64,000 nt of DNA from contig CAZMFR010000001.1 of NCBI GenBank assembly GCA_964565685.1, positions 36,376 through 100,375 of the forward strand, written 5' to 3'. A program made the position numbers and the translations under genes. The stretch's first letter is position 1. The number at the start of each line of letters is the position of its first letter. Below are positions 824 through 60,033 of the stretch, in pieces. Below the pieces are notes generated by a model, which ran no database searches, was not told the origin of the DNA, and was given only the letters and a program-made list of their open reading frames with translations. This stretch comes from an uncultured Candidatus Saccharibacteria bacterium (GTDB lineage Bacteria; Patescibacteriota; Minisyncoccia; Phycocordibacterales; PALSA-1337).

Positions 824-1522
824 CAGCTTTTTGCTGCTTGAAAAAATAACCTTGATGAAATTGAAGAGATATTTTATTTGGATCTTCATAAAACCCTCTC
901 TCTTGAACCGCCTCGCGGAAGTCGGTATGATCAGATTTGGGTCAAACACGACTCTGCCTAATTTAGAAAGATTTTTTGCTGTATCAGTATCATCGCCATA
1001 AAAAATGAATCTCGTATCAAACCCGCCGACAGCATTTATTGAAACAGCGCGCATGAAGCTGTTCCCCCCTATCATGACTGCGCCGATCCGGAATAATTGC
1101 AGGATAGAATTTGTCAGGCGATATATATATTTTTGAAAATAGAGAGAAAGATATCTGGAAAAACTGCCTCCGTCGAAATAATCGTATGGACCAGTCACAG
1201 CCACTGTTTTCTCGTCCAAAAAATGTACAGCCCCCATAGACAGCCAGTCTCTGTGAGGCACGCAATCAGCATCCATCCTCACTATTATCTCTCCATTGGC
1301 CTCTTTTAGTCCCCTTTCGCAAGCCCACATTGTTCCCCTTCGGCTTTCATGCAGGACTTTGACTTTTGCAAACGATCCTGCAATCTCCGAAGTCCGATCC
1401 GTGCTCCCATTGTCGACGACGATGACTTCAAAATCAGGATGATCTTGCGCCAAAATGGCTTCGAGGGTCTTGTCCAAATATTTTTCTTCATTAAAAGCCG
1501 GGATTATTACGGAAATTTTCAT
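812..1522 (-). CDS. family 2 glycosyltransferase
   Basis: N-terminus ISVIIPAFNEEKYLDKTLEAILAQ...VIVVDNGSTDRT is a typical GT2 signature. The DAD-like motif (RMDADC) is present. The 3' end overlaps the convergent hydrolase by 12 bp. Confidence 0.75.
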   Translation of the reverse strand: MKISVIIPAFNEEKYLDKTLEAILAQDHPDFEVIVVDNGSTDRTSEIAGSFAKVKVLHESRRGTMWACERGLKEANGEIIVRMDADCVPHRDWLSMGAVHFLDEKTVAVTGPYDYFDGGSFSRYLSLYFQKYIYRLTNSILQLFRIGAVMIGGNSFMRAVSINAVGGFDTRFIFYGDDTDTAKNLSKLGRVVFDPNLIIPTSARRFKREGFMKIQIKYLFNFIKVIFSSSKKLSIE

Positions 1523-2130
1523 TTGTTTAGATAATTAGTGATAAAACGCTTGCCTAAATATTTGCCGAGGCCGAACATCAGCAAAAAAACTATCCCCGAC
1601 ATCGCTATAATCGACAATAGATCCAATTTTGCGCCTACGGCAGTATACAGGTTACCCAATCCAAAGCCAATCAAGAGCAAGCCGCCCGTCCAAAATATCT
1701 GACCAAAGCCATTTAGCGCCATATATCGGCGAAAAGGCACTTTTGAAAGGCCTGCAGTGAATAGAACGACTGGAGCAAAGCCGAGACCTGTGGTGAGTTT
1801 TGATACGAATAATATGGAATCATGATATTTGCTGAACACTTTTTGCACCGTCTCTACTTTTTTTATATTTATACTGAAATATCTTCCAAAACGGTTGATG
1901 AAAGAATAGCCCCAACGGCGACCGAGGAAATACCAAATGACATCGCCAGAAAGATCGCCTGTCATTACGCATAGATATGCCGGAATAAAATAAAGCGCTC
2001 CGGCCTTCAACAGAAAGCCGCAAATCAGAGATATTATAGGACCTTCCACCAAAGTCAAGATGAATATGAGACCATACACGAGCACGTCGTGATTCGTGGC
2101 TATAGAGATTATCCACAAAATAGGATCCAT
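1519..2130 (-). CDS. DedA/SNARE-associated (TVP38/TMEM64) family membrane protein
   Basis: Polytopic membrane ORF with a DedA-like core (LVEGPIISLICGFLLKAG...GDLSGDVIWYFLGRRWG). The start is uncertain: the ORF extends to 2235, and an internal Met at 2130 is chosen. Confidence 0.55.
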   Translation of the reverse strand: MDPILWIISIATNHDVLVYGLIFILTLVEGPIISLICGFLLKAGALYFIPAYLCVMTGDLSGDVIWYFLGRRWGYSFINRFGRYFSINIKKVETVQKVFSKYHDSILFVSKLTTGLGFAPVVLFTAGLSKVPFRRYMALNGFGQIFWTGGLLLIGFGLGNLYTAVGAKLDLLSIIAMSGIVFLLMFGLGKYLGKRFITNYLNK

Positions 2131-2335
2131 GGTCATCATTCTACACCAAATCATCCACAAAACCAGGCAAATGCAGATTCGCACTAGGTACAATCCACGA
2201 CAAAATCGGCAAGCTGATGCCGATCTTGCAGTCAATCATATAAAGTTTTTAAAGTCATAAAGCCCGTAAATCCTACACAAATATTCTTGCGCCTGCTTTA
2301 CGAACCTTACAGACTTTTGACCTTATGGATTATCT

Positions 2336-2845
2336 CTATCTCGTCACCGAAATAATCGCGTCATTGGGCAGTATTTCTCCATCGCCGAAAATAGTTATAT
2401 GACCGCCAGTGTCTTTTGATACAAAATACCCTGTGTGATAACTTGACGTGCTCGTATATGAACCGTTCGTCGGATCATATGGCATTGACGATATATAATC
2501 TGGCACAAGACATGGTCCAAGATCGCCACCGTTGTTATTACCGCTCGAGATATCCGTAGTATTAGGATTAGGGCCATCGATAACATATGCACTGCCATTA
2601 CAGGTGAATACACCCTTGTGCTCGGCAATATTTTGATCGATCGCATCCAATATGGTAGCTACATTGGCTGAACGCTGGGTATCGCGCGCCAAAGCGAATT
2701 GATGGGCAGGATTTACGGCGACTATGACTACAGCCGCCAATATGGCGATGATGCCGATGACCACTAGCAATTCGATCAAGGTAAAGCCGTTGGTAAATGA
2801 CCTATATTGACGCCTACAAACAATGACAAAATGTTTCTCTTTCAT
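2336..2845 (-). CDS. type IV pilin / pseudopilin-like protein (prepilin-type N-terminal cleavage/methylation domain)
   Basis: N-terminus ...GFTLIELLVVIGIIAILAAVV matches the class III signal peptide G/FTLIE followed by a hydrophobic helix. 169 aa. Confidence 0.7.
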   Translation of the reverse strand: MKEKHFVIVCRRQYRSFTNGFTLIELLVVIGIIAILAAVVIVAVNPAHQFALARDTQRSANVATILDAIDQNIAEHKGVFTCNGSAYVIDGPNPNTTDISSGNNNGGDLGPCLVPDYISSMPYDPTNGSYTSTSSYHTGYFVSKDTGGHITIFGDGEILPNDAIISVTR

Positions 2846-3039
2846 ATTGTTTAAATATTAAAGCCGAAAGAATTCCGTAGAATCATAAAATCTCGAGATC
2901 AAAAGGGTGGATCCATGATGTAGAATTTATGATCCAAGAAAAAACGTATCCCGCATTTTTCTTGGATCTTTGATCTTAGATCCTGCCTTTGTATCCTCTG
3001 ACTTTAAAAAACGACGAATCTCCGGCCTTTGCTATTAAT

Positions 3040-3122
3040 GCGATAATTATAGAGAAAGGTTATTAAGAAAAGTTAAAAAAGTTCTAAAGAAAAGTTAAAA
3101 TCATACTAGACCTCGCGAGGTC
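3040..3122 (-). promoter_or_regulatory. Conserved AT-rich promoter-associated repeat, copy 1 (oriented toward the pilin gene at 2845), plus the adjacent palindrome GACCTCGCGAGGTC
   Basis: Read on the minus strand: GATTTTAACTTTTCTTTAGAACTTTTTTAACTTTTCTTAATAA, then 8 nt, then TATAAT (plus coordinates 3046-3051). This is a near-exact reverse complement of the copy at 31380-31422. The 14-bp perfect palindrome lies at 3109-3122. Confidence 0.55.
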
Positions 3123-4057: not shown

Positions 4058-6832
4058 TTATTTCCTATACTTCTCCGCAATCTGCGCCTCGATCTCTGCG
4101 CGATCCTTGCCATAAGTCAGATATGACAGCTCTTTCAGCTTGCCCGCGACATCCGCATCGCCTTTGGGGATATTCGGAACGGCGATGTTGAACGGTTTGA
4201 CGGGAACGCCTTTGGCCAAAAGTTTGACGTAACAGTTGTAATTGTCGATATTCAAAATGTCTTTTTGGGTAAAAGCCGGTTCGAATTGTTTTGCCAGAAA
4301 TTCGGCATCCTCGACTCCGACACGATAGACTGCCATAGAGCCGACATTGCCGAAGACGGCGTTCTTGATCTTTTCATCGAGCTGTTTGATGAATTGATGG
4401 GCGATGTTTAGCGACAGCTTGTATTTGCGCGCTTCGGACAGGATAGTGGCAATAGAATCAGTGGTTATATTCTGGAATTCGTCGATATACAGATAAAATG
4501 GCGGCAGGTTTTTGCCGAGCGAGTCGACGCGCGACAGAGCCGACATCAGGATCTTGCCGACAATGATCAGACCTATAAGATTGGCGTTTATGTCGCCGAG
4601 CCGGCCTTTTGATAGATTGACAAGCAAAATCTTCTTGTTATCCATTATGTCGCGAATATTGAATGTAGATTTTTCCTGTGCGATTACAGGACGCATGATG
4701 TCGTTGGCCAAGAAATTATCGAACTTTGACACGATATATGGAACGATATTAGCCAGAGATGCTTCGCCTCCGGCTTTGTCGGCTACTTCGCGCCAGAATT
4801 GGATTACGAGAGGGTTTTTACAAGTTGCCAGCTTGGACTCGCGGAATTGCTTGTTCGAGAGCACGCGCGAGACGTCGACCAGGGTGTTGTTCGATGACGG
4901 GTCGTCTATGGTAAGGAGGACCGCGTTGCGGAAATATTGTTCGAACATCGGGCCGCCGGCAGTTTTCATGTCGAAGAGCTTGTTAAAGATAGAGAGCATC
5001 TCATTGACCACAAATGTTTTCTGCTCCGGATAGCGCGTATCATATTCGAGCATGTTCAGAGCCATCGGTCGCGCCGTGTACGCCGGGTCGAAATAAATGA
5101 CGTCTTCAAAACGATCTTGTGGGACCAGGGCAAGTATATCTTCGACGTCAGAGCCATGCGGATCGATGAAGCAAAGGCCGTTCCCTTTTTGCATATCCTG
5201 AACGATCATATCCTTTAGCAAAGTCGTCTTGCCTGTGCCTGTCTGTCCGATGACATAAAAATGGCGCAGACGGTCATCGTCAGTCGTATAAACTTTTGTC
5301 TCTCGTCCGCGATCCGTATTGGTGCCGAGAAATGTCCCCATCTGCGGCAAATCCATAGGCGCAGGAGCCGTACCGGATTTCGTCAGCTTGACCTGAGAGG
5401 TCGAAACCTTGCCCGCTACCGGCAAATGCATGACTGTCGTGAGCTCACGCAAAGAAAGCGGGCAATCGCAGCTGTCATCGAATCTGCGATAGGTGAAGTC
5501 GTCTAGTTCTTTTTCCAACTTGCCTCTCGTCACACGAACGAATTCAAAGCAGTTCCCTTGGATATTTTCGAATTGGTTAAAGGAGGCCTCCAGATCAGAC
5601 AGAATGGCATTAGCTTTTGCTTCGCTTTCTGCAGAAGCGATGATACGGATATTTGTCGAGAGCACCGGCGACAAGAGCTTGTTTTGAATCTCCTTCATGC
5701 CGAGCTCGTCTTCAGGCCGATGGCCTTTCTGCGCCTTCTTCTCTTCTTTTTTCTTTTCCTTTTCCTCTTTGCTCGTCGTGACGCTTTCAAGCGCGCTTAC
5801 AAACCCAGAAGCAAAACCCTTTAGCGCTTTGTGTCCAAGAGAATACGCGATATCGATCGCCTCTGACAATTTTTCGCCCTTTTGGATCTTCTCTAATGCC
5901 TTCTTGTATTTTCCGGTATAGAAATCACCGACAGGACTAAAGACGATCTGGATCGACGCGCCTTCGCCATCGCGGTCTATCTTTGAAAAGCTGTTCAGAA
6001 GAGAATTGATCGGATCATGGTCGAACTGCTCGTATGTCTTTATCGGGAAGATATGATTCTTTTTTTGTTTGGCGCGAGACGCTACGGAGGCGCCGTTCTC
6101 ATTGAAGATATTGTAGTCGTTCTTGCATTCGTTCACTTTTGCATCTGGCAATATTGAAAGGATCTGCTTTTCAAATAGATTGCGTTTTTCATCCGGCACT
6201 GCGGCATAGAAAACAAAGTCGTCGCTGTGATTCGCTACTGCTATCTCGAAGACAAATCTGTTTTTACCGTCATCGCCTCCAGCACACATGCCTGCATAGA
6301 ATTGCTCCATCGACGAGAGGATCTCCTTCAACGGCTTTTGGGGATTGTCTTTCTTTTCATTTTCCGGCACCAGTATCTCGAATAGAGACATGTTCAGTTC
6401 CCTCCAAAGCGGGCTCTTCTCCTTTAATCCGCCGATGACAAAACCGGATTTCAGATATTGCACGAGCAGACGATGAAAGTCGGCAGAGATGTGCGGATTG
6501 TCCATTTTATCCACGATTGAAAGGGTGGCGTGTATGCCTTTTGTCTCGAGCATGCCGAGAAGCTCGTTCATCTTTGCATCATGCTGTTCCGGCGCGAGAT
6601 CTAGGACGATGGCCTCCATTTCCTGAGTAGGCACTATATATTTTTCCGCTAGCACTTCGCCCGGCTTTTTCTCGGCATATTTCAACACCTCCTCGCGCGC
6701 AACATGCTCGACAGACGCATCTGGAGTCCTTTCGAGGATCTCTTTCTCCTTTTTCGCGATCATCTCGCGCAGATACGATATCTCCTCTTGCGGATTCTGG
6801 AATTTTTCTGGCTGACCAATTAGATTCTCCAT
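4058..6832 (-). CDS. VirD4/TraG/TrwB-like (type IV secretion coupling-protein-like) P-loop ATPase with a large N-terminal domain
   Basis: C-terminal half carries Walker A (VIGQTGTGKTTLL), a DPHG motif (CFIDPHGSD), Walker B (LYIDEFQNI) and an HQ motif (NIAHQF). This set is characteristic of TraG/TraD/VirD4-type ATPases. HerA/FtsK-like is an alternative. The roughly 450-aa N-terminal domain has no TM segment. A K/E-rich low-complexity linker (EEKEKKKEEKKAQK) separates the two halves. Confidence 0.6.
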   Translation of the reverse strand: MENLIGQPEKFQNPQEEISYLREMIAKKEKEILERTPDASVEHVAREEVLKYAEKKPGEVLAEKYIVPTQEMEAIVLDLAPEQHDAKMNELLGMLETKGIHATLSIVDKMDNPHISADFHRLLVQYLKSGFVIGGLKEKSPLWRELNMSLFEILVPENEKKDNPQKPLKEILSSMEQFYAGMCAGGDDGKNRFVFEIAVANHSDDFVFYAAVPDEKRNLFEKQILSILPDAKVNECKNDYNIFNENGASVASRAKQKKNHIFPIKTYEQFDHDPINSLLNSFSKIDRDGEGASIQIVFSPVGDFYTGKYKKALEKIQKGEKLSEAIDIAYSLGHKALKGFASGFVSALESVTTSKEEKEKKKEEKKAQKGHRPEDELGMKEIQNKLLSPVLSTNIRIIASAESEAKANAILSDLEASFNQFENIQGNCFEFVRVTRGKLEKELDDFTYRRFDDSCDCPLSLRELTTVMHLPVAGKVSTSQVKLTKSGTAPAPMDLPQMGTFLGTNTDRGRETKVYTTDDDRLRHFYVIGQTGTGKTTLLKDMIVQDMQKGNGLCFIDPHGSDVEDILALVPQDRFEDVIYFDPAYTARPMALNMLEYDTRYPEQKTFVVNEMLSIFNKLFDMKTAGGPMFEQYFRNAVLLTIDDPSSNNTLVDVSRVLSNKQFRESKLATCKNPLVIQFWREVADKAGGEASLANIVPYIVSKFDNFLANDIMRPVIAQEKSTFNIRDIMDNKKILLVNLSKGRLGDINANLIGLIIVGKILMSALSRVDSLGKNLPPFYLYIDEFQNITTDSIATILSEARKYKLSLNIAHQFIKQLDEKIKNAVFGNVGSMAVYRVGVEDAEFLAKQFEPAFTQKDILNIDNYNCYVKLLAKGVPVKPFNIAVPNIPKGDADVAGKLKELSYLTYGKDRAEIEAQIAEKYRK

Positions 6833-10343: not shown

Positions 10344-10511
10344 AGTTGTTAGAGCATCGAAGTCTGCAAAGTCCTTATCTGAAGAAAAACAAAGATGTTT
10401 TTGGAGATTTAGTTTCCATTTTGAGTGGATTTAAGATCCATGATCTAAGAATTCTTTTTTGCATTTTTCTTGAATTTTGAATCATAGATCTTGAATCTAT
10501 TCTCACGTTCT

Positions 10512-11627
10512 TCACAAATCCAACACTCGCTTTACTTCCTCTATTGTTGTCGCTCCCCACTCGACCTTTTCCGCGGCATGATCGCGCATAGAAACCATGC
10601 CTTTTAGGCGGGCATGCCTGGCTATTTCGACCAATGGCATTCTGGCGGAAATATACGCGCGCAATTCGTCGTCTATCTCGAGAACTTCGGCTATTATAGT
10701 CCGGCCACGATAGCCCTTTTGGAAGCAATATGGACAGCCAAGACCATCGCAGACGTGGCATAGTATTCGTACGAGCCGCTGTGCGATGACAATAGATAGA
10801 GTATGAGCGACAAGATACGGATCGATACCCAGATCGGAAAGCCGCGTCACTGATCCGAGCGCATCATTGGTATGGAGAGTCGAAATGACCAAATGACCAG
10901 TCAAGGCAATATTCGTGGCGATCTCTGCGGTTTCCCTGTCGCGGATCTCTCCGACCATGATCACATCAGGGTCTTGACGCACAAGAGAGCGCAAGCCGTT
11001 TGAAAAATTTATGCCGTGACGATGATCGATCGCGATCTGACGGACACCGTTGATGGCATATTCGATCGGATCCTCGAGAGTGACGATAGATAATGGTTCT
11101 GAAACCAATTGGCGCAACATGGCATACATAGTAGAGGTCTTGCCGCTTCCGGTCGGTCCGGTGACGAGAATGAGCCCCTGATTGCGTGTCAACGCTTCGC
11201 GTATTATGGCTTCATTATCCGGAGAAAAACCGAGCAAAGACAGATCGGCGGTGTTATAGCCGCCGGCCAAAATACGGATAACGGCATTTTCACCGAAATG
11301 AGTCGGGATTATGGATACGCGCATATCAATGGCAGGAGTAGCAGTAGTGATAGGACCTCTGCTGTATGAGAATCGCCCATCCTGAGCCAGCAGATGTATA
11401 TCCGGTCGCAATTTGGCGAGAACTTTTATTCTGGCGATCAATTCCTGATGAAGGGACAGAGGAATAGTCACGCAATGCGTCAAAATACCGTCAATCCTCA
11501 TGCGCACTATCAAACTGCCGTTTTCTGGATCGATATGCACGTCAGAAGCGCCATAAGAAATAGCGTAATCGATGATAGCGTCCAGGGCCTCGGTCGCCTT
11601 TATCCCATGCTGTATGTTTAATTGCAT
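10512..11627 (-). CDS. pilB: type IV pilus assembly ATPase PilB-like (GspE family), short form lacking the N1 domain
   Basis: Walker A VTGPTGSGKTST, Asp box DPDVIMVGEIRD, His box GHLVISTLHTNDA. The tetracysteine motif CHVCDGLGCPYC plus GRTIIAEVL is typical of GspE/PilB rather than PilT. Confidence 0.85.
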   Translation of the reverse strand: MQLNIQHGIKATEALDAIIDYAISYGASDVHIDPENGSLIVRMRIDGILTHCVTIPLSLHQELIARIKVLAKLRPDIHLLAQDGRFSYSRGPITTATPAIDMRVSIIPTHFGENAVIRILAGGYNTADLSLLGFSPDNEAIIREALTRNQGLILVTGPTGSGKTSTMYAMLRQLVSEPLSIVTLEDPIEYAINGVRQIAIDHRHGINFSNGLRSLVRQDPDVIMVGEIRDRETAEIATNIALTGHLVISTLHTNDALGSVTRLSDLGIDPYLVAHTLSIVIAQRLVRILCHVCDGLGCPYCFQKGYRGRTIIAEVLEIDDELRAYISARMPLVEIARHARLKGMVSMRDHAAEKVEWGATTIEEVKRVLDL

Positions 11628-11710
11628 GCAATAATCATAGAAAAAAGTTATTAAGAAAAGTTAAAATAGTTATAAAGAAAAGTTAAAGTCATAGGAGACC
11701 TCGCGAGGTG
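11628..11710 (-). promoter_or_regulatory. Conserved AT-rich promoter-associated repeat, copy 2 (oriented toward pilB), plus the GACCTCGCGAGGTG near-palindrome
   Basis: Minus-strand read: CTATGACTTTAACTTTTCTTTATAACTATTTTAACTTTTCTTAATAA, then 8 nt, then TATGAT, then 6 nt, then the pilB ATG. This implies a very short or leaderless 5' UTR. The near-palindrome is at 11697-11710. Confidence 0.55.
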
Positions 11711-17435: not shown

Positions 17436-18281
17436 TCAAAACTCCCCTATCTTCGTCCTCTCTATCGAAAGCGCGAACGTCGCCGTGCCTGCTTCCCTGC
17501 CGATCCGCTCTGCCAAGCTGCGCATATAGGTGCCGCTTCCACACGACACGCGAAGCTTGATGACGAGAAAATTCTCTGCACCGTGCTCGCTTTCAAACTT
17601 CTTCCAACCTTCGATTATTTCCTTTTGACGAAAATCACCATTCACTTTTGAGACATTCTCGATCGCCCGTTCGGCAAGATCATTGCCACCGATAAAGTCA
17701 AGCTGTTTTTTAGCGCGATTTCTTCCTTTATCCATTCCTTTTCTTGCCAATTCTTCTATTGAATAAATCTCTACCTCTTTCGTCGGCATCTCGTCAGGCA
17801 ATTCACCGCTTCTAGCAAGGTCATGCAAATGACGCTTTTTACCGAGATGGAATCTTTCCGATATTTTATCTTGTACTTGTCCAAGATCAGATCTTGGACA
17901 GACAGTTTTCGACGAATACGCAGGATAGACCTGCGTGAACTTGCCGCAGAATTTTGTCCAAGGGTAGCCCTTGGATACAAGCCCTTCGGAATAGGTCATG
18001 GCATGGGTCTGCCGATCCACCTGTGTTATAAGCCCCAGCGCGTCGCCCGTATCCGTCCCGACGCCAAATAGCACCTCGATCTCGTATTCCTTGTCCAAAC
18101 CGAGATATTTTTCCTTTTCCTTACATTCTTCACCGATGAGCAATAAAAGCTTGCCGCTCGCCAACGGATCGAGCCGCCCGGCGTATGTCATCGGCACATT
18201 TACATCGATCCATTTTTCGCGCCGCGTCCTTTCAAGGCATTCAAGCGGCGTCTCGCCTACTGATTTATTAACCACAAGCAT
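17436..18281 (-). CDS. truB: tRNA pseudouridine(55) synthase TruB-like, carrying two in-frame palindromic-element insertions
   Basis: Catalytic-Asp region (YAGRLDPLASGKLLL) and the TDTGD segment are present. A FTQVYPAYSSK segment resembles the conserved PP.YSA.K element. Two 24-bp palindromes at 17878-17901 and 17955-17978 encode the inserted peptides CPRSDLGQ and KGYPWTK. Confidence 0.6.
   Translation of the reverse strand: MLVVNKSVGETPLECLERTRREKWIDVNVPMTYAGRLDPLASGKLLLLIGEECKEKEKYLGLDKEYEIEVLFGVGTDTGDALGLITQVDRQTHAMTYSEGLVSKGYPWTKFCGKFTQVYPAYSSKTVCPRSDLGQVQDKISERFHLGKKRHLHDLARSGELPDEMPTKEVEIYSIEELARKGMDKGRNRAKKQLDFIGGNDLAERAIENVSKVNGDFRQKEIIEGWKKFESEHGAENFLVIKLRVSCGSGTYMRSLAERIGREAGTATFALSIERTKIGEF
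17878..17901. repeat. palindromic hairpin element, copy inside truB: TGTCCAAGATCAGATCTTGGACAG
   Basis: Perfect inverted repeat GTCCAAGAT-CAG-ATCTTGGAC, in frame within the truB CDS. Confidence 0.8.
17955..17978. repeat. palindromic hairpin element, copy inside truB: TGTCCAAGGGTAGCCCTTGGATAC
   Basis: Inverted repeat CCAAGGG-TAG-CCCTTGG, in frame within the truB CDS. Confidence 0.8.
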
Positions 18282-23384: not shown

Positions 23385-24200
23385 ATGGAACCAAACCAAG
23401 ATCCTCGCCCACAGCAAATCCTCACCGTCCCCATGGCCATCGTTTTGGCCGCAGTCATTATCGGCGGAGTCCTCCTGTATATGTACCGTCCAGCGGCCAC
23501 CACACAACAGGCAGTGAATAGCCAAGCCGCTCCTTCGGTCACCGTCCCAGATACCAGTGCTCTCCCACCAGTCACCGCCGCCGACCATATCCTCGGAAAC
23601 CCGAACGCGCCGATAAAGATCGTCGAATACTCGGATCCTTCTTGTCCGTATTGCAAAATGTTTCAGGCAACCATGCTCCAGATCATGCAGAATTATGGCG
23701 CCTCCGGAAAGGTGGCTTGGGTCTATCGACAATTCCCTCTCAACAAACCGGACCAGAACGGCAATATTTTGCATCCGAATGCCGGCATACAGGCAAATGC
23801 TTTTGAATGCGCAGCATCTGTCGGCGGCAATGCAGGTTTCTGGGCTTATGAAAAAGACTGGTACAGCACTTTTCCACAGGACGGCGCTGACGAAACCTCT
23901 ATCGTAGATAACCAGCAGATAATACAGACAGCAAAAGACATCAAGCTCGACACGAATGCGTTCAATAATTGCGTTCTCGGCGACAAGTTCGCCTCTACGA
24001 TCAACCAAATGTACGCATCCGGTCTCTCTCTCGGCATCGACGGCACGCCAACTTCATATATTGTGACCTCAACCGGCCAGCCGATCGCCATTCAGGGCGC
24101 ACAATCCTACGCGACACTCTCGGCCGCTATCGATGCGATTTTGGCGGATCAAGGGCAAGGGGGAACAGCTTCGACAGCTTCGACAACTTCGACACAGTAA
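23385..24200 (+). CDS. DsbA-like thiol:disulfide oxidoreductase (membrane-anchored thioredoxin fold)
   Basis: N-terminal TM helix. CPYC active site in SDPSCPYCKMFQ. The C-terminal T/S/A-rich tail is encoded by a 9-bp tandem repeat. Confidence 0.7.
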   Translation: MEPNQDPRPQQILTVPMAIVLAAVIIGGVLLYMYRPAATTQQAVNSQAAPSVTVPDTSALPPVTAADHILGNPNAPIKIVEYSDPSCPYCKMFQATMLQIMQNYGASGKVAWVYRQFPLNKPDQNGNILHPNAGIQANAFECAASVGGNAGFWAYEKDWYSTFPQDGADETSIVDNQQIIQTAKDIKLDTNAFNNCVLGDKFASTINQMYASGLSLGIDGTPTSYIVTSTGQPIAIQGAQSYATLSAAIDAILADQGQGGTASTASTTSTQ

Positions 24201-24203
24201 TTC

Positions 24204-24225
24204 GTACAAGGGCTTCCCTTGAACT
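24204..24225. repeat. palindromic hairpin element (degenerate copy): GTACAAGGGCTTCCCTTGAAC
   Basis: Inverted repeat CAAGGG-CTT-CCCTTG. Intergenic, between the convergent dsbA-like and helicase genes. Confidence 0.7.
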
Positions 24226-24230
24226 ATGTT

Positions 24231-24252
24231 TGTACAAGGTAGCACCTTGTAC
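24231..24252. repeat. palindromic hairpin element: TGTACAAGGTAGCACCTTGTAC
   Basis: Perfect 10-bp arms with a 3-nt centre, followed by TTTTTTA at 24266-24271. Intergenic. Confidence 0.85.
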
Positions 24253-24271
24253 TGGAAACGACGGGTATTTT

Positions 24272-27200
24272 TTAGTCGAAGCTTACTTTGGCCAATCCGC
24301 ACCATTCGCAATCTGGATCATCGCATCTGCTTGACACAAGCCCACCGGACCAGACGCTGTCGATGACGCTTTGGATCTGCTCTTTTACTTTTTCTATATC
24401 CTCATGAGCTATCGGCAAGGAAACGATCGGACAGCGGCCTTTTTTATCCGGCGAGATGAAGACGAGCGCAGGCGTGATCTTTTTACCCCTCCAGCGCGGC
24501 TCGTCGTCTAGCAATATGCGATAGAACACGAGCTGACGAAAATAATCGCCGGTTGAATTTTTCGTCTCCCCTTTTATCTCGTTCACCGACATACCCTCGC
24601 GCGTTTTATAGTCAAAAACCTGGATCTCGTTTCCTGCATCGATGATCGCATCTAGCTTGCCGTGGAGCGGAATCTCGACTAGATCGAGGGATACCATCGT
24701 TGTCCGAGGGCTTCCATTTTGTCCAAGGGTAGCCCTTGGAGTTGTATCAAAAACCGTCTTGACCCATCTTTCGGTAAATATGGCCGCCTGCCGGCCGACA
24801 GCAAAATGCGACTCGAGGGCTTTTGCAACAGCCGGCGCGTCCTCGAACAGGTCTTTCTTGACCGATTCTTTTTCCTCCGCGGCAAGAAAAGACGTATCCA
24901 GATATTCCGCCGCTTTTTCCAAGATGACATCTTGGATATGCGATGCGGTCCGATCGCCTTCTTTCCAAATCGAAGAAATCGCATAATGCATGGCCGTGCC
25001 CTTTTCAGCCGCCGGCGAAGGCGCTTGCGGCAGTTTTAGAATGCTCAAATAAAGGAATTTATTCGGACATTCGAGAAAATGGTTCAAGGCCGTGACAGAA
25101 AGGCCGTTTTCAAGGAGAACCTGTTTGGCGATGGCAGTCATCTTGTTCGAGATCGGATCTCGAACTTTGATTTGTCCAAGGTCCGATCTTGGCAATTCCG
25201 CTTCAAACCTCGGCAAAGACGCCGCCGCGACGCTTTTTGGATCGAGCTCGGCGATAAATCGAAGCGGCGTCAGAGATTTGCCGTCGCTTTCCTCTAGAGC
25301 GGTCAGAATGACCGCATGCTTCTTGGCACGAGTCAGGGCGACGTAGAATAATCGCCGCGTATCGCGAATATCGTTGCCGCTCGCGCTCTTTTCTGGCAAA
25401 ACAAAAGATGCGCCTCGTGTCCGGCCGATCCACGCTTCTTCGGTGGCGTACGGCATGAAAACATAGTCGAATTCTAGCCCTTTAGAACCATGAGCCGTCA
25501 TAGCCGAGATCGACAAGTCTGGCGCACCGACGGATACCTTCACTGTCTTTGACTCGGCCGATTGGCGATACACGAGCATTGCCTTTATCAGGTCGAGCGG
25601 GCTCTGTATATTCCCTTCTCGCGCGAGCGATTCGGCAAGAGCAATGATGCCGCGCCACACATGAATAGCCGCCGGATCGCGACTGGCGATAGTAGAGAAT
25701 CCGGATGACTCGGCGGCGTGTATTAGAAAGGCGACAGCGCTGTCTTCTTGCATCTTTCTTTGCAAGCGGACGAGTGACGGAATTTTGTTTATCCAAGGGC
25801 TACCCTTGGACTGATTTTCCAAGGGTAGCCCTTGGAACTGACCGCTTCTCAAAGACTTTATCAGGGGAATCGCTTCGTCGATCGAGATTCCCCACATTCC
25901 AGCCGCAATCGTCTTTGCAAGGCAATCCGTCCGCGTGTAGTCAGCCAGAAACTCCATCAGATCAAAAAATAGCGCCCCGACGGAATGATGGAATATATCG
26001 ACACTTCTCTCCGATGAAACCGGTATATGATTCGATTCGAGGAGCCGGATGATGCGCTCTAGATCGCGATTGCGGCGAGTGATGACGGCGACAGTGGCTG
26101 TTGGCTCCTCTTTTAAGATCGTTTCGAGCCCAACAACTAGATATCTTTCGATAGCCGAGACGTTCTCACCAGTGACTACATCGAGCTTGCGCAGTCCTTC
26201 TCCATCTTTCCTTTTTTCTTCCTGTCTGTCGGCAGGCATGGCTTTGCTTCTCTGCTTGCCTTTATCGCCCGCTGTAAGTCTAACCCTCAAATCCTTGTGC
26301 TCGTCGCCTTCATAATTGTTCTCTATCATGGCAAAGCTGGCATCTAGAATGCCTTGATGCGATCGATAATTCGTATCGAGCGATATGACCTGCATGGTCG
26401 GCCAACGCTTTTGCAAGGTCAAGAAATTTTCGACAGAAGCGCCCTGGAACCGATAGATCGCCTGTTTTTCATCTCCAACAATGAATATGTTCGGTGTTTC
26501 AAAGAATTCAGCGATAGTGGCGACGATGAAATTCTGGGCATCGTTCGTGTCCTGATGCTCGTCCACGAGAAGATATAGAAATCTCTCCTGGATAAGCCGT
26601 AAAAACAGCTCATCGTTGCGCAAGGCGACGAGAAGCTCGATGAGAAGATCATTGAAATCCATCTTCTTCTGCTCGCGCTTGTCCTTTTCATATTTTTCAT
26701 AAATTTGGGAAAAGAGGACGGTGCGGCCGCACTTCTCTATGCGTTCTTGCGCTTCTGCTTTCAGCTTGCCCTTCGTAATGCCGCGCGTCGAGATAGAATC
26801 ATCGTCTTTTTTGATCCTTTCGGTCTCTTTTTCAGCGAATTTGCGCACCATTTCCGGAGTTTGCGCTTCCCTCTTTGCATTATCTATAGCGCGCATAATA
26901 GCAGATATGTATGCATCCGGCTTGCCAGTCGGACGAAGCTCTCTAAATTCCGGCTTGGAGATTATCGAGCGGATCAGAGACTCCTGTTCGACATCGCTCA
27001 TATGCGCCATGCCATCGAGATGCAGGAAGTGATCTGGATACTCGGCGATCATCGCCGCGGCAAAGCTATGAAAAGTATGGATCGCGATCTCGTGCGCGCG
27101 ATTGCCGATTATTTCGCGAAGCTTTGCGCGCATGGCCTTGACACCAGCATCGGTGTACGTAATAGCCAAGATCCCAGACGGTGGCGTATCCGTCCTCTTC

Positions 27201-31379: not shown

Positions 31380-31436
31380 GATTTTAACTTTTCTTTAGAA
31401 CTTTTTTAACTTTTCTTAATAATTGGTCTGTATAAT
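31380..31436 (+). promoter_or_regulatory. Conserved AT-rich promoter-associated repeat, copy 3, with TATAAT -10 box 7 nt upstream of the MazF-like ATG
   Basis: GATTTTAACTTTTCTTTAGAACTTTTTTAACTTTTCTTAATAA, then 8 nt, then TATAAT (31431-31436). Exact reverse complement of copy 1. Confidence 0.6.
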
Positions 31437-31443: not shown

Positions 31444-31842
31444 ATGAATGAAAGATATATAAAGGAATTTGACCTTTGGAACGCTAAAAAGAAGGAGATC
31501 GAACGGTCAGATGTGGAGCGGCTTTGTCGTGAACGAGAGATTTGGTGGTGCACTCTTGGGGTGAATGTAGGTTCCGAACAAGACGGCAAGAACGAGCTAT
31601 TTGAGAGACCTGTCTTGATCTTGAAGAGATATAATATAGATTTGATTCTTATCCTGCCAATCACCAGTACAGAAAAGAACAATCCATATTACGTAAAAAT
31701 CAGCGGCGTCGTGTCTTCAAGTGTTATCTTGTCTCAGATTAGAGCCGTAGACAGCAAGAGACTTTTACGGAAAGTAGGAATGATCTCCATAAAAAATTAC
31801 CTACTTGTTTTGTTCAGTTTACTCAAGACACTGCTTCCCTAG
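31444..31842 (+). CDS. PemK/MazF/EndoA-family endoribonuclease-like protein (no adjacent antitoxin ORF seen)
   Basis: REIWWCTLGVNVGSEQDGKNELFERPVLIL matches the MazF/PemK core (G.EQ.G.RPVLV). ILPITS and VILSQIRAVDSKRL resemble EndoA VILLEQIRTIDKQRL. There is a roughly 30-aa N-terminal extension. Confidence 0.6.
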   Translation: MNERYIKEFDLWNAKKKEIERSDVERLCREREIWWCTLGVNVGSEQDGKNELFERPVLILKRYNIDLILILPITSTEKNNPYYVKISGVVSSSVILSQIRAVDSKRLLRKVGMISIKNYLLVLFSLLKTLLP

Positions 31843-31946: not shown

Positions 31947-33746
31947 TTAATCTGCCATCCTCTTCTTCCCGACTTCCGCCAGCTTCTTTGAAAGCTCATG
32001 GCAGAGTTTTGCCGCGATATTGGATTTTTCGGCGTTCTTTTCTCGCTCGGCGGCGGCCAGATCATTCATCGCCTCGGACAGCTTCTCCTTTAAAATATCT
32101 TCCTCGAAATTGACCATCAATTCGGCCAATTCTTTTGAAAAGTCATGCCCGTCGCCATAGGTGATCTCGGCTTCGAGAACTAGGTCGTCTTTCAATGATT
32201 CGACTTCGCTTGCGATCTTTTGGTACTCGTCGCCGGCGATTTCCTTGATCTTTTCATAAAAAACTTTTGGATCAATGGGGATTTTTTCCGCCTTGCCGAC
32301 AGAAACACCAGCGTTCTTTTCGAGAAAAGCCAGGAGGCCAAAGAGCTTTCGCATGATGATATCGAGCCGGGCTTGAGGGATAGTCTTTGCCGTCAACGAG
32401 GACGCGCCCGGTCTCGAAGCAGACAAAACCTCCTCTGGTTTTTTGTTTTTCAAGTATGCACCAAGGTCGTCGCGCACGGATTCCTCGGAAAGGCCAGTTT
32501 TATCATGCACCATTTTTATCCAATGGGAGCGTTCCATAGATCCGGCGACTTCGGCGATGAATGGCAGGACTTTTTCACGGATGAGAGCGGGCAATTTCCT
32601 AGAGTCGAGCTTCGCGCCTTCTTTTTCCTTCATGATGCCATCGAGGATGAATTCAACGATCGGCTTTGAGCGGCGCAGGGTGTCTCTCCATTTTTCAGGA
32701 TTTGCCAGGACAAGGTCGGCTGGATCCTTGCCGCCTTCGATATCGGCGATCTTGACATCCATGCCGAGGTTGAGAGCGATCCGTGCCGCGCGCAAGGAAG
32801 CGTTTTTTCCGGCTTTATCTGAATCGAAAGCGATCAGCAAATTCGGCGACAAGCGGCGTATGATGCCGACATTGTTCGTCACATGCTCGCGCGAGATAGC
32901 GTCTTCGGCGAGTGCCGTACCGGAAGCGGCAACCGTATTTTTTATCCCTGCCTGATGCGACATTATGAGATCCATCTGGCCTTCGACGAGGATAGTGTAA
33001 TCTCTCTTGCGGATCTCGCCTTTGGCCTTGTCTATGCCGTATAGGACGGCCGATTTATCGTAGAGCGGCGAGTCTGGCGTGTTTATATACTTGCCCTCGC
33101 CCTCCTTTTCATGGAGCAAACGGCCGGAAAAAGCGATGATACGGCCGGACGAGTCCATGATCGGAAACATGACGCGATCGCGAAAACGGTCGTAATAATC
33201 GCCGGCATCCTTTCTCTTGACCAATCCCGCCTTCTCCATATCCGCATCGTTAAAACCCTTCTTTGACATCGCATCACGCAGATTGCGCCAACCTTCCGGC
33301 GCGAAACCGATCCTGAATTCTGTTATCGTCTCCTCTTTTACTCCCCTTTTTTTCAAGTATTCTTTTGCTTCGCCAGATAAACGCCCTTGATAAAAGATAG
33401 CGGCAGATTCCATGACAGAATATAGCCGCTCGCGCTCGGTTTTCTTTTCCCTATTTTCGAGGGTTATTGGGATGCCGGCACGTTCAGCGAGCAGTTTTAA
33501 AGAGCCCATGAAATCGAGGCCTTCGAATTGCTCGACAAAAGTGAATATATCCCCCTTTGCGCCGCAACCAAAGCAATAGAACGAGCCGCGATCCGGCGAG
33601 ACAAAAAATGACGGCGTCTTTTCGTTGTGGAATGGGCAGCGGCCCTTCCAATTCTTGCCGGCTTTCTCCAGCTTCATATACGATGAAATGACTTCCTCGA
33701 CGCCGAGGCGCTCTTTTATCATATCGACTGTGGAGCGGTCTTTCAT
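31947..33746 (-). CDS. dnaG: DNA primase
   Basis: Zinc-ribbon CPFHNEKTPSF...CFGCG, TOPRIM region (EGQMDLI, DSDKAGKNA), 599 aa. Confidence 0.85.
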   Translation of the reverse strand: MKDRSTVDMIKERLGVEEVISSYMKLEKAGKNWKGRCPFHNEKTPSFFVSPDRGSFYCFGCGAKGDIFTFVEQFEGLDFMGSLKLLAERAGIPITLENREKKTERERLYSVMESAAIFYQGRLSGEAKEYLKKRGVKEETITEFRIGFAPEGWRNLRDAMSKKGFNDADMEKAGLVKRKDAGDYYDRFRDRVMFPIMDSSGRIIAFSGRLLHEKEGEGKYINTPDSPLYDKSAVLYGIDKAKGEIRKRDYTILVEGQMDLIMSHQAGIKNTVAASGTALAEDAISREHVTNNVGIIRRLSPNLLIAFDSDKAGKNASLRAARIALNLGMDVKIADIEGGKDPADLVLANPEKWRDTLRRSKPIVEFILDGIMKEKEGAKLDSRKLPALIREKVLPFIAEVAGSMERSHWIKMVHDKTGLSEESVRDDLGAYLKNKKPEEVLSASRPGASSLTAKTIPQARLDIIMRKLFGLLAFLEKNAGVSVGKAEKIPIDPKVFYEKIKEIAGDEYQKIASEVESLKDDLVLEAEITYGDGHDFSKELAELMVNFEEDILKEKLSEAMNDLAAAEREKNAEKSNIAAKLCHELSKKLAEVGKKRMAD

Positions 33747-35272: not shown

Positions 35273-35557
35273 GATGCGGATGATACCATCTCATCAAGCA
35301 CAGTTCAACAAAATAAATCCTCATGAATTATGAATATCCTCTTCATCAACAAAAGCCGCATGAATCGCATCAAAGCCATTCTCCTTTTGGAAAAAGAGGG
35401 AGATTTGGTGATCACAACATCTAACAGTGGAAAGGGTGTCTCATTTTTAAAATTCTGGAAGCCAGACAAAATCATTTATAATTTGTCAACTGCACAGAAG
35501 CTCGCTTCCAAAAGAAAGCAACCAACAAAGCCGCGAACATAAGTTCCGGCTTCTTTT

Positions 35558-35580
35558 TTGTACAAGGATAGCCCTTGTAC
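35558..35580. repeat. palindromic hairpin element: TTGTACAAGGATAGCCCTTGTAC
   Basis: Directly abuts and overlaps the mltG stop codon. At a convergent junction. Confidence 0.75.
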
Positions 35581-36521
35581 TACAGATACTTTGTCTCATT
35601 GGTCATCTGCTCGTCATATGTCTCGGCAAAATGTATGTTCCCTTTTGAATCAGACAAATAATACCAATATGTCGTGCTAGCCGGCGAGATTGAGTCCTCT
35701 ATCGCTGAAAGCCCGGGGTTACCGATAGGCGTCGGAGGCAAGCCGAGATTTTTATATGTATTGAATGGCGAAGTGGTCGCCAAGTCGTCAGAAGTCAATT
35801 TTGTACCGTCTTTATCCAGAGCAAAAGCTAGGGCGGCATCCACTTGGAGAGGCATCTTGTCGTCTAGACGCTTCCATAGAATGCCAGCGATGATACGGCG
35901 GTCATTAGAAGAGGTCGCTTCGCGCTCGAGAATCGAGGCCATGATGACGATGGACGATGTGGCACGGCCAGATTCCGAGATCTGATCTTGGACAGAAGAA
36001 ATCTTTTGATCAAAGAGCGTGCGCATAGCTTTCACCGCATCGTCTGGCGAAGTATCCATATTAAAGAAATACGTGTCCGGAAACAGATATCCTTCTGACG
36101 GATCTGCCAAAGTCATAAAAGTCGAAGTGGAAAAACCAGGAATATCTTTGCCGAGCAACGCTGAAATCTGCTGTACATCAAAACCCTCTGGGATGGTCAC
36201 TTTGATCGGGGTAAATCCATATTCTCCATTGACGAGCCGCCGTGCGACCTGTACGACTGATTCCTTCGAATCAAAAAGATAATCCCCTGCCTTGACCCCT
36301 CTCTCGCCTGAAAAAATTATCACAAAAGACTTGAATAGAGCTTCTGATCTTATCATATGATCATTATAGAGATTATCCGTGACTGCGGCGAGCGAAGAGT
36401 TCTGCTCGATGTGAAAAATCGTTCCGACAGGAAAAGTTAAAGAAGGAAACGCGGCAAAACCAAACATGGCAAGTAAAACGACTATGAAAAAAACACCGAT
36501 AGCCGACAGAAACTTTTTCAT
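35580..36521 (-). CDS. mltG: endolytic murein transglycosylase MltG (YceG family)
   Basis: N-terminal TM helix. Motifs IPEG, ASILEREA and GLPPTPIGNPG, plus a YWYYL C-terminal region. Confidence 0.75.
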   Translation of the reverse strand: MKKFLSAIGVFFIVVLLAMFGFAAFPSLTFPVGTIFHIEQNSSLAAVTDNLYNDHMIRSEALFKSFVIIFSGERGVKAGDYLFDSKESVVQVARRLVNGEYGFTPIKVTIPEGFDVQQISALLGKDIPGFSTSTFMTLADPSEGYLFPDTYFFNMDTSPDDAVKAMRTLFDQKISSVQDQISESGRATSSIVIMASILEREATSSNDRRIIAGILWKRLDDKMPLQVDAALAFALDKDGTKLTSDDLATTSPFNTYKNLGLPPTPIGNPGLSAIEDSISPASTTYWYYLSDSKGNIHFAETYDEQMTNETKYL

Positions 36522-38005: not shown

Positions 38006-38017
38006 AAGGCAAAAAGT

Positions 38018-38042
38018 TTGTACAAGGGTAGCCCTATGTATA
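38018..38042. repeat. palindromic hairpin element (imperfect): TTGTACAAGGGTAGCCCTATGTATA
   Basis: Intergenic. Immediately preceded by an (AAAGGCA)x3 tandem repeat at 37991-38016. Confidence 0.7.
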
Positions 38043-44460: not shown

Positions 44461-44483
44461 TGTACGAGGTGGCACCTTGTACA
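44461..44483. repeat. palindromic hairpin element: TGTACGAGGTGGCACCTTGTACA
   Basis: Intergenic, just downstream of the groEL stop. Confidence 0.75.
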
Positions 44484-51830: not shown

Positions 51831-51855
51831 GGTACAAGGTAGCACCTTGTACAAA
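51831..51855. repeat. palindromic hairpin element: GGTACAAGGTAGCACCTTGTACAAA
   Basis: Intergenic, in a divergent promoter region. Confidence 0.8.
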
Positions 51856-55468: not shown

Positions 55469-55579
55469 TAGACGCTCTTTCCATGCTGAATTTTGCCAAC
55501 TCTAATAAAGATTGCATCGGTAAAATAGTCCTAAATATAGCGGTTATACAGCTCTATTCTTGTATGGCCTGCCTGTGCA

Positions 55580-55606
55580 TAACTATTTTAACTTTTCTTA
55601 ATACCA
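55580..55606 (+). promoter_or_regulatory. partial copy 4 of the AT-rich promoter-associated repeat upstream of the sensor kinase
   Basis: TAACTATTTTAACTTTTCTTAATACC, then 8 nt, then CTATGCT. Matches the 3' half of the repeat, including the spacing to a -10-like hexamer. Confidence 0.4.
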
Positions 55607-55642
55607 AAAGAGCTATGCTTGTGTGCGATCTATATCGACACG

Positions 55643-58868: not shown

Positions 58869-58899
58869 GGAGATATTAAAGCACAATATCGCAAGTTTT

Positions 58900-59972: not shown

Positions 59973-60033
59973 TTGTAAGAAAAAACCCGCGACCTATAGA
60001 AGCGCGGGCTTTCCTCATAATTTGAATTCGAAC

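Follow-up and report, generated by a model that had tools for sequence, protein, structure and literature searches.

In competence regulons, one cis element marks the pilus or pseudopilus genes together with comEC, comF, dprA, ssb, recA and comM-type genes, and also toxin-like and nuclease genes; the promoter signatures of this kind include the streptococcal ComX cin-box, the Bacillus ComK boxes and the CRP-S sites of the Pasteurellaceae and Vibrionaceae. In the Patescibacteria, ComEC, DprA, ComF and type IV pili are conserved, the uptake machinery is almost universal, and Saccharibacteria are naturally competent (PMC10633639). A literature search found no regulator or motif described for the DNA-uptake genes of Patescibacteria, nor the motif treated here, and nothing on Patescibacteria promoters or leaderless transcription. 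Elements read by response regulators are well described: the pmra-box consists of two XTTAAY hexamers that lie 5 nucleotides (nt) apart and overlap the -35 position, residue N188 of PmrA reads the AA of TTAA, PhoB occupies -41 to -25, and both PmrA and PhoB make up for a weak contact between sigma region 4 and the DNA (PMC10570014). In Coxiella, at least 68 promoters contain a PmrA consensus site (PMC4117601). The DNA analyzed here is a stretch of 64,000 nt (the window) from an uncultured bacterium deposited as Candidatus Saccharibacteria (contig CAZMFR010000001.1, positions 36,376 to 100,375). It contains a repeated AT-rich promoter element, the module, ahead of a pilin gene, pilB, a MazF-like gene and a sensor kinase gene. 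On balance, the sequence comparisons favor reading the module as tandem activator sites for a response regulator, which would define a candidate competence regulon.

The sequence of the window (G+C ~46%) is identical to contigs of Joint Genome Institute (JGI) peat-bog metagenomes, of which the longest has 200 kb; SPRUCE/Marcell bog samples with this genome are JGI 3300017988, 3300014655 and 3300041809. The nearest named relatives of the response regulator, PilB and ComM-type proteins are assigned to 'Candidatus Pacebacteria', 'Patescibacteria group', Paceibacterota and Taylorbacteria, and the host is therefore a Patescibacterium (candidate phyla radiation, CPR) of the Parcubacteria/Paceibacteria lineage. 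Three full module copies and one half copy are present in the window, whereas the expectation for the 43-mer in shuffled sequence is 0. The four sites are made up as follows.

3060-3102, minus strand: module copy 1, exact 43-mer GATTTTAACTTTTCTTTAGAACTTTTTTAACTTTTCTTAATAA, with distal TTTAAC-N4-CTTTAG and proximal TTTAAC-N4-CTTAAT
3087-3100 and 3065-3078, minus strand: half-sites of copy 1, matches to the 14-mer TTTTAACTTTTCTT
3046-3051, minus strand: -10 hexamer TATAAT of copy 1, 9 nt past CTTAATA
near 3039, minus strand: predicted transcription start of copy 1, placed from the -10 position; the corresponding predicted starts are 11627 (minus strand), 31444 (plus strand) and ~55626 (plus strand) for copies 2, 3 and 4
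3110-3121, minus strand: left-arm palindrome ACCTCGCGAGGT of copy 1, a perfect 12-mer, exact
11648-11690, minus strand: module copy 2, 3 mismatches to copy 1
11634-11639, minus strand: -10 hexamer TATGAT of copy 2, 6 nt ahead of the pilB ATG (11627), predicted leaderless
11698-11709, minus strand: left-arm palindrome ACCTCGCGAGGT of copy 2, exact 12-mer
31380-31422, plus strand: module copy 3, exact 43-mer GATTTTAACTTTTCTTTAGAACTTTTTTAACTTTTCTTAATAA, without left-arm palindrome and preceded by a terminator-like hairpin
31431-31436, plus strand: -10 hexamer TATAAT of copy 3, 7 nt ahead of the PemK/MazF-like ATG (31444)
55579-55603, plus strand: module copy 4, half copy ATAACTATTTTAACTTTTCTTAATA, the proximal unit plus the final 7 nt (ATAACTA) of the distal unit
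55586-55599, plus strand: 14-mer TTTTAACTTTTCTT of copy 4, single occurrence
55614-55619, plus strand: -10 hexamer TATGCT of copy 4, after a 10-nt gap; the leader up to the kinase ATG has 23 nt

The repeat is genuine and highly non-random. Copies 1 and 3 are mutual exact reverse complements, as the first-pass annotation had it, and each is the exact 43-mer. The internal direct repeat that it described is also present, with TTTTAACTTTTCTT recurring at a start-to-start distance of 22 nt: the 14-mer occurs twice per full copy and has 9 matches in the window with up to 2 mismatches (1.1 expected). Palindrome ACCTCGCGAGGT is found in the window only at copies 1 and 2 (0.09 expected), which have 84 nt in common at 89% identity, the upstream palindrome included, and the generic box TTAAY-N5-TTAAY occurs solely at the four module sites (0.65 expected). 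Some details needed correction. The copy with few mismatches upstream of pilB does exist but had been placed at 11646-11688, 2 nt off, and the partial copy ahead of the histidine kinase gene spans 55579-55603 instead of 55580-55606. The gap between CTTAATA and the -10 hexamer had been given as a uniform 8 nt; copies 1-3 have 9 nt and copy 4 has 10 nt, and 8 is obtained only by counting from CTTAATAA. The -10 hexamers of copies 1 and 4 had been read correctly, whereas those of copies 2 (TATGAT) and 3 (TATAAT) had been swapped. The short distance of 6-7 nt from the -10 hexamer to the ATG of pilB and the MazF-like gene was measured at 6 nt and 7 nt.

Metagenomes were scanned with the pattern TTTTAACTTTTCTTAATA-N9-10-TANNNT, which matched at least 117 stretches, nearly all from peat, bog and fen samples. 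Removal of low-GC chance matches and duplicates left 91 distinct sites among the matches listed, and the site and context counts given here rest on these. The element is the core of a ~65-nt promoter cassette and is thus longer than the 43 nt first noticed. A GC-rich left arm is followed by a distal 22-nt unit (consensus WTTTTAACTTTTCTTTAGAACTT, hexamers TTTAAC-N4-CTTTAG/T), a proximal unit (consensus TTTTAACTTTTCTTAATAAC, hexamers TTTAAC-N4-CTTAAT), 7 mostly T-rich nt and the -10 hexamer. The hexamers form head-to-tail pairs, and their starts are spaced 10, 12 and 10 nt within the two-unit module. The left arm reads (ACCTCGC)GAGGTTCCCGCC in most species, and its variants are genome-specific and common to all copies of one genome (ACCTCGCGAGGTCTCCTATG in the window species, GGTTCCCGCC in others); the frequency of GGTTCCCGCC in the window is at chance level. 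Among the 91 sites the -10 hexamer is TATAAT at 57 and TATACT at 18, together 75 over the 9-nt and 10-nt gaps, with other hexamers in the remainder, and CTTAAT ends 10 nt (CTTAATA 9 nt) ahead of it at 85, within the gap that the scan pattern prescribes. The same 9-10-nt gap is seen at the reference-genome sites L044 and L070 and at nhmmer matches, and the pattern did not constrain the distal unit, the left arm or the distance to the ATG, all of which are conserved. In some variant modules the distal unit is reduced to its final 7-12 nt, in others it has diverged further, and others again have three tandem units; the 'class B' form, which resembles window copy 4 in having a partial distal unit, is found at 9 other loci.

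A profile search of 526 kb of related DNA added 5 copies without the exact core, each with 1-3 core mismatches. A scan of reference genomes with the bare 18-mer returned two true sites in MFD01223.bin.1.27, a related uncultured bacterium (L044, L070), and a possible relative, REEB237 (L101); the matches were otherwise mainly chance hits in AT-rich genomes. No match was found in the viral contigs searched. A resemblance in a Bacilli metagenome-assembled genome (L009, 2285-2302; TTAGAAC-TTTTAACTTTTCTTAATAATTGGTCT, ~30 nt like copy 3) was set aside because it lies inside a glycerophosphodiester phosphodiesterase-like open reading frame (ORF), and was judged coincidental.

All 91 sites face a downstream gene. 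Distances measured from the -10 hexamer to the first ORF-opening ATG form two sharp peaks: 32 sites have 6-8 nt (leaderless) and 25 sites have 28-33 nt, where a uniform spread would give ~1 site per peak. At most sites the A of a CAT, a common context of transcription starts, lies 7 nt past the -10 hexamer. If the -10 hexamer is taken as -12 to -7, the proximal pair occupies ~-38 to -23, the -35 position, and the distal pair ~-60 to -45. The first-pass suggestion of a lineage-specific promoter architecture is borne out, since the orientation and the fixed distances to the -10 hexamer and the start codons hold at ~90 loci, and the element is confined to one Patescibacteria clade, with a diverged equivalent in a sister clade. 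The leaderless reading of pilB and the MazF-like gene also stands, but this arrangement is genome-wide and not particular to the element: many window genes have TAnnnT 6-8 nt ahead of the ATG without a Shine-Dalgarno sequence. Window genes with an ordinary promoter of this kind include:

4058-6832, minus strand: TAnnnT leaderless promoter
19735, plus strand: TAnnnT leaderless promoter
31947-33746, minus strand: TAnnnT leaderless promoter
33956, minus strand: TAnnnT leaderless promoter
36518, minus strand: TAnnnT leaderless promoter
38092, minus strand: TAnnnT leaderless promoter
39436, minus strand: TAnnnT leaderless promoter
43737, minus strand: TAnnnT leaderless promoter

Module promoters have TTG at a 16-18-nt spacing in no case and TGn in 8%. 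Among 112 non-module leaderless promoters from related DNA, 29% have a TGn extended -10 and 14% a weak TTG at a 17-nt spacing; the groES/EL promoter in the window is an ordinary TTGCTA-N16-TATAAT without a module. Several known types of element were considered for the module and discarded on inspection of the sequence. A canonical -35 element (TTAACT) would require a 19-nt spacer, the spacing is unsuitable for the AAC -35 element of extracytoplasmic function (ECF) type, and a MerR-type spacer operator would show dyad symmetry, which is absent. Plasmid-type iterons and integron attC sites do not agree with copies that are dispersed and directed toward genes. The left-arm palindrome is a poor intrinsic terminator, as its stem is weak, it is missing from many copies and no gene lies upstream of copy 2.

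The predicted transcripts of the 28-33-nt group open with ATTATTAG, ATTATTAGTAA or ATTAATAG, are AU-rich over ~25 nt and lack a Shine-Dalgarno sequence. This leader, seen for example at L148, L156, L172, L174, L179 and window copy 1, may be a conserved translation-initiation leader. At L118, L149, L168 and L191, short conserved sequences follow just past the -10 hexamer (e.g., GATGAGCATTTTGTCCTGTGGGGATGC) and could be small peptides or small RNAs; neither a convincing ORF nor an Rfam match was found for these four. Aragorn called a tRNA-Asp behind the L191 module, but Rfam did not confirm it. Rfam searches of the window, of L044, L070 and L101 and of the DNA that follows ORF-less modules returned no RNA family, and no tRNA gene was found in the window.

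The genes downstream of the modules were grouped by clustering and Pfam annotation, with the following numbers of contexts among the listed sites.

ComM/YifB: 7 contexts, DNA uptake and recombination
recA operon (a small coiled-coil protein, then RecA): 7 contexts, DNA uptake and recombination
rpsF-ssb-rpsR: 5-6 contexts, DNA uptake and recombination
DprA, often followed by TopA: 5 contexts, DNA uptake and recombination
Pilins: 4 contexts, DNA uptake and recombination
PilB: 3-4 contexts, DNA uptake and recombination
ComEC: 2 contexts, DNA uptake and recombination
YraN: 1 context, DNA uptake and recombination
ComF-like phosphoribosyltransferase: 1 context, DNA uptake and recombination
Solitary PemK-fold proteins: 7 contexts, nuclease-, toxin- or mobile-element-like
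NYN nucleases: 6 contexts, nuclease-, toxin- or mobile-element-like
Weak Y1-transposase/RAYT-like proteins: 6 contexts, nuclease-, toxin- or mobile-element-like
RhuM: 5 contexts, nuclease-, toxin- or mobile-element-like
DUF3800: 1 context, nuclease-, toxin- or mobile-element-like
Sensor kinase: 3 contexts, regulatory
Helix-turn-helix (HTH)-Cas1 operon: 1 context, clustered regularly interspaced short palindromic repeats (CRISPR)
404-amino-acid (aa) secreted proteins without a Pfam match: 4 contexts, secreted
LCAT-like proteins: 3 contexts, secreted
Several small proteins: function unassigned

This set is coherent and built round the type IV pilus, DNA uptake and recombination, in agreement with the earlier proposal of a shared regulon that includes the pilus genes. 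The comM, rpsF, recA-operon, pilB and kinase genes keep the module across species at 71-90% protein identity. No module was found at the promoters of ribosomal-protein operons other than rpsF-ssb, or of tuf, rpo and groEL, in the window and ~0.5 Mb of related DNA. The uptake genes and the module-free housekeeping promoters together show the pattern of a regulon centered on the type IV pilus, DNA uptake, processing and recombination and not that of a generic strong promoter. Known competence boxes are absent from the module consensus (no TACGAATA, no AAAA-N5-TTTT pair and no TGCGA-N6-TCGCA). In L173 (~1108-3000), the module lies ahead of an HTH-Cas1 operon with a small-protein gene after it, an arrangement that would link CRISPR adaptation to this promoter class.

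A two-component locus in the window lies at copy 4:

54794-55468, plus strand: OmpR/PhoB-family response regulator (Pfam Response_reg and Trans_reg_C), a candidate module binder
55643-57100, plus strand: sensor histidine kinase (Pfam HATPase_c), behind copy 4 and directly downstream of the regulator gene

A search of solved structures with the regulator gave Thermotoga DrrD as the best relative, followed by BasR/PmrA (phmmer E = 5e-39). Its recognition helix is SNTIEAHITNLR where PmrA has TNTLEVHIHNLR (over a longer stretch, SNTIEAHITNLRKKL and TNTLEVHIHNLREKI); the Asn equivalent to PmrA N188 is kept, the changes at T187, V192 and H195 are conservative, and the helix is conserved in 120 out of 120 regulator homologues examined. 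The kinase gene lies behind a module in three species (the window species, L231 and L177, with a two-unit module in the latter two), and the module is gone where the kinase gene is lost or truncated (L232 and L233). The regulator gene's own promoter in the window has no module, and the kinase showed no informative similarity past its generic catalytic core. Two explanations had been offered for the element, an upstream-promoter (UP)-element-like substitute for the -35 box and an activator site. The activator site is preferred over the UP element because XTTAAY repeats occupy the position of a pmra- or pho-box and the gene of a PmrA-like regulator lies close by.

The regulator encoded at 54794-55468 is the most likely candidate to bind the module units. 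The proximal pair would then stand in for the -35 element, and binding would recruit the sigma-70 holoenzyme, as PmrA and PhoB do at the pmra and pho boxes. Recruitment would turn on leaderless or short-leader transcripts, and the genes so expressed would be those for the type IV pilus, DNA uptake and recombination, along with the nuclease- and toxin-like ones. The module ahead of the partner kinase gene would provide positive feedback. Binding, activation as opposed to repression, the transcription starts and the link to competence are all put forward here from sequence comparison.

The promoters of more distant relatives were compared next to those of the peat clade. In L235 (PilB 78% identity), the pilB promoter keeps the proximal unit. 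In REEB237 (PilB 71% and ComM 74% identical), the pilB promoter keeps only TTTTAA-N4-TCTTAAT-N10-TATACT-N6-ATG, and the comM and pilB promoters carry the same species-specific ~75-nt module. A distant Parcubacteria clade, whose regulator and PilB are ~57% identical, lacks the peat-type module. Its boxes consist of T-rich hexamers TTTTAT/CTTTAT (TTTAT-N6-TTTAT) with an 11-bp period that end 10-11 nt before the -10 hexamer. A 16-mer, TTTATCAAAATTTTAT, is found exactly 33 nt ahead of the -10 hexamer both at pilB (L236) and at the operon intervening between regulator and kinase in L237 and L238, and related boxes precede the gene divergent from the regulator gene as well as comM (L240). At the recognition-helix position that corresponds to PmrA H195, the peat clade has T where the distant clade has L. 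The same genes share a box within each clade and the box changes with the regulator, as a transcription-factor regulon predicts; this is hard to reconcile with a purely mobile repeat. A more far-reaching proposal, that the module and the adjacent two-component system are the first cis-regulatory code and master regulator of natural competence in Patescibacteria (pilus, ComEC, DprA, ComM, RecA and SSB), in a circuit conserved across Parcubacteria with box and helix co-evolving, is advanced tentatively and may well prove too broad.

In the distant clade a small ORF is present between regulator and kinase, behind a box-bearing promoter (L237 6837-6935; L238 ~6829 onward); the L237 product has 32 aa (MNIEQTKISDETVKKSIDAGDDDAGEFAPWND). 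The layout recalls a peptide-signal gene beside a sensor kinase, and such an ORF is absent from the window. By analogy with ComCDE, of which this is reminiscent, a small peptide whose gene lies between those of regulator and kinase might drive the circuit in some members.

A number of observations weigh against the activator-regulon reading. The missing -35 element is no proof of activator dependence because many ordinary promoters here lack both TTG and TGn. In the metagenome matches, the 18-mer identity and the 9-10-nt gap were at least partly dictated by the search pattern. Roughly half of the genes behind modules show no clear connection to competence (PemK-like, NYN, RhuM, RAYT-like, secreted and small proteins), and membership varies, with comEC behind a module in L229 and behind an ordinary promoter in L231; a second pilin gene in the window, at 27720, has no module. 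The hexamer spacing is 10/12/10 bp, where pmra and pho boxes have 11 bp. Some 65 nt, GC-rich left arm included, are near-identical among dozens of sites per genome and genome-specific between species; this exceeds what a transcription-factor site needs, is left unexplained by the activator model and amounts to an unexplained concerted evolution of regulatory DNA. The genome-specific left arms suggest that the module has evolved in concert, has spread recently or also binds a second factor. There may also be other OmpR-family regulators elsewhere in the genome.

That last point leads to an alternative that retains activation and changes the protein: the module could be the site of another OmpR-family regulator, of an AraC/XylS- or LytTR-type protein, or of an uncharacterised factor that is itself module-driven. 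AraC/XylS and LytTR sites typically also consist of direct repeats with a 21-22-bp period that abut the -35 position, several conserved small proteins and one HTH protein are encoded behind modules, and further regulators may be encoded beyond the 64 kb covered. This alternative is nevertheless considered unlikely, as the hexamers fit the PmrA-type XTTAAY specificity, the window regulator has a matching recognition helix, and among regulatory loci only the two-component system recurs in association with the module, in two clades.

It is quite improbable that the module is a constitutive strong-promoter cassette without a dedicated regulator, its T-rich units serving as an UP-like or curved-DNA contact for the alpha or sigma subunit of RNA polymerase. 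The AT-rich composition with phased T-tracts at ~-60 to -23, the fixed position relative to a near-consensus -10 hexamer, the high expression expected of pilin and rpsF, and the many promoters of this lineage that have a -10 element only would all suit such a cassette. However, the conserved positions include specific C and G bases and hexamer direct repeats, beyond mere AT-richness, and the sequence does not match the UP consensus, for which no formal scan was run. The module is also missing where strong promoters would be expected (groES/EL, tuf, rpo and the ribosomal-protein operons bar rpsF-ssb) and present ahead of comEC, dprA and comM, which are normally not among the most highly expressed genes. 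Finally, the box sequence shifts between clades together with the recognition helix.

Recent spread of a self-propagating repeat, either a mobile promoter-bearing element or gene conversion ('promoter propagation'), would explain the near-identity of ~65 nt at dozens of sites. The genome-specific left arms (ACCTCGCGAGGTCTCCTATG and GGTTCCCGCC), the variation in unit number (1, 2 or 3), the comEC module that is present in L229 and not in L231, the six Y1-transposase (RAYT)-like genes behind modules and the insertions inside or beside modules that resemble repetitive extragenic palindromic (REP) elements are all in keeping with it. As the main explanation it is very doubtful: inspection of the module alignments revealed neither terminal inverted repeats nor target-site duplications, the strict orientation and the ATG 6-8 nt past the -10 hexamer at 32 sites would need base-precise insertions, the comM, rpsF, recA-operon, pilB and kinase genes retain the module across species, and the corresponding genes of the sister clade carry an equivalent box with another sequence. 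Spread and function of the module are compatible with each other.

An operator at which the same regulator or another protein would block the -35/spacer region of -10-only promoters until a signal arrives is equally doubtful. The units do span ~-39 to -18 directly against near-consensus -10 hexamers and -10-only promoters appear sufficient in this lineage (a point that also counts against activation), but the geometry is that of PmrA and PhoB activation (a box ending 10 nt before the -10 hexamer and a second box 22 nt upstream), the 9-nt gap at 85 of the 91 listed sites is an activator-typical constraint, albeit partly imposed by the scan pattern, and a module-driven kinase gene reads more easily as positive feedback.

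Besides the two-component locus, the genes behind the full module copies in the window are:

2336-2845, minus strand: pilin gene downstream of copy 1 (Pfam N_methyl E = 2.5e-07, N-terminal methylation motif)
2846-3039, minus strand: predicted structured 5' leader of the pilin transcript, ~194 nt (fold -60.4 kcal/mol, z = -5.9 vs shuffles)
10512-11627, minus strand: pilB, T2SSE ATPase of 371 aa (Pfam T2SSE E = 1.5e-105), opening the pilB-pilC-LVIVD-pilin cluster
31444-31842, plus strand: solitary PemK/MazF-fold gene behind copy 3, predicted leaderless (Pfam PemK_toxin E = 6.6e-14)

The pilB-pilC-LVIVD-pilin cluster is kept in relatives. The 371-aa PilB lacks the usual N-terminal domains and is the normal Patescibacteria form (homologues of 360-380 aa), not the result of a frameshift. 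The pilin leader and the pilB-pilC spacer (10344-10515, minus strand) have a long hairpin in common, GATCCAAGAAAAATGC...TTCTTGGATC, which could be a regulatory or processing structure. The 'MazF-like' label is correct as to fold, as the PemK_toxin match shows, but the gene is solitary, and no antitoxin gene lies between the promoter module and the gene. One relative has a PemK domain joined to a UvrD/PD-(D/E)XK helicase-nuclease of 1130 aa; the fusion and the promoter context hint at nucleic-acid processing rather than at a classical toxin-antitoxin pair.

Downstream of the pilus cluster, a VirD4/TraG-like coupling ATPase of 924 aa (4058-6832, minus strand) has its own ordinary leaderless promoter. 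Elsewhere in the window, a 484-aa protein (36518-37972, minus strand) has a weak T4SS_pilin match of 25.1 bits, just below the Pfam cutoff of 26.6 bits. Together they suggest type IV secretion-like components. The window also contains rpoD, encoding the primary sigma factor, and dnaG. Two dispersed families of intergenic palindromes, GTCCAAGGGTAGCCCTTGGAC and TGTACAAGGTAGCACCTTGTACA, have the look of REP elements or of shared terminator hairpins and occur in the window at:

17951-17975: dispersed palindrome
24199-24253: dispersed palindrome
24716-24740: dispersed palindrome
25786-25836: dispersed palindrome
35555-35581: dispersed palindrome
38015-38039: dispersed palindrome
44461-44483: dispersed palindrome
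51831-51853: dispersed palindrome
58896-58920: dispersed palindrome
59941-59973: dispersed palindrome
60940-60962: dispersed palindrome

The GTCCAAGGGTAGCCCTTGGAC/TGTACAAGGTAGCACCTTGTACA palindromes also adjoin some modules in the related loci L163, L169 and L209. A further element, resembling REPs or miniature inverted-repeat transposable elements (MITEs) (...CGACAAGCGAGGAGCGGCGTGGC...CATGACGTCCGAGCG...), splits modules at recurrent positions: the distal unit in L124, L204, L155 and L210 and the proximal unit in L233 (15872-15999). The same element lies between promoter and gene at L146, L214 and L044. An origin of class C distal units by REP-element insertion held at just 4-5 loci and was abandoned as a general explanation.

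If the activator reading is correct, the module would represent the first candidate control circuit for natural competence in Patescibacteria, which make up a large share of uncultivated bacterial diversity. It would supply a recognisable promoter signature by which the regulon can be listed in any genome of the clade, a named candidate regulator with its sensor kinase, and a defined promoter cassette, strong or inducible, for Patescibacteria genetic tools. It would also explain why pilus, uptake and recombination genes are wired jointly with nuclease- and toxin-like genes.

The closest counterpart is the pmra-box of PmrA/BasR, known from Enterobacteria and with large regulons in Legionella and Coxiella. 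Like the module, it has XTTAAY direct repeats at the -35 position and a fixed short distance to the -10 hexamer, and regulons of dozens of near-consensus sites are known for PmrA, as proposed here for the module. PmrA, like the candidate regulator, belongs to the OmpR/PhoB family and uses an Asn to read the AA of TTAA, a contact that is presumed for the window protein, and its two-component locus lies within its own regulon, as would be the case here with the kinase gene behind a module. The candidate regulator is not a PmrA orthologue, because the two are only distantly related (phmmer E = 5e-39, as given above). The hexamers of the pmra-box are separated by N5 and those of the module by N4; the module has one or two, sometimes three, tandem 22-nt units and a GC-rich left arm; and its predicted transcripts are leaderless or start with a 25-nt leader without a Shine-Dalgarno sequence, unlike those of pmra-box promoters. 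The PmrA regulon serves envelope modification or encodes effectors, whereas the genes here belong to the pilus and to DNA uptake and recombination, in a Patescibacterium instead of the hosts named above. The pho boxes of PhoB share with the module the tandem 22-bp units of two direct-repeat half-sites, the extra upstream units in phase, and a proximal unit that takes the place of the -35 element, with ~10 bp between its end and the -10 hexamer; they differ in their TGTCA-type half-sites, 11-bp period and phosphate-gene regulon. Competence signatures resemble the module in being a single shared element ahead of pilus, DNA-channel and DNA-processing genes, but they depend on an alternative sigma factor, ComK or CRP-Sxy, where a response regulator acting directly at the late genes is proposed here. 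Mobile promoters and REP or MITE repeats likewise place near-identical segments with genome-specific variants before unrelated genes; the module differs from them in its coherent, species-conserved gene set, in showing no transposon-like ends and in having an equivalent of different sequence in the sister clade. The mechanism proposed for the module is thus of a known kind, and its novelty lies in the regulon, in the lineage and in the cassette-like way in which the module is conserved.

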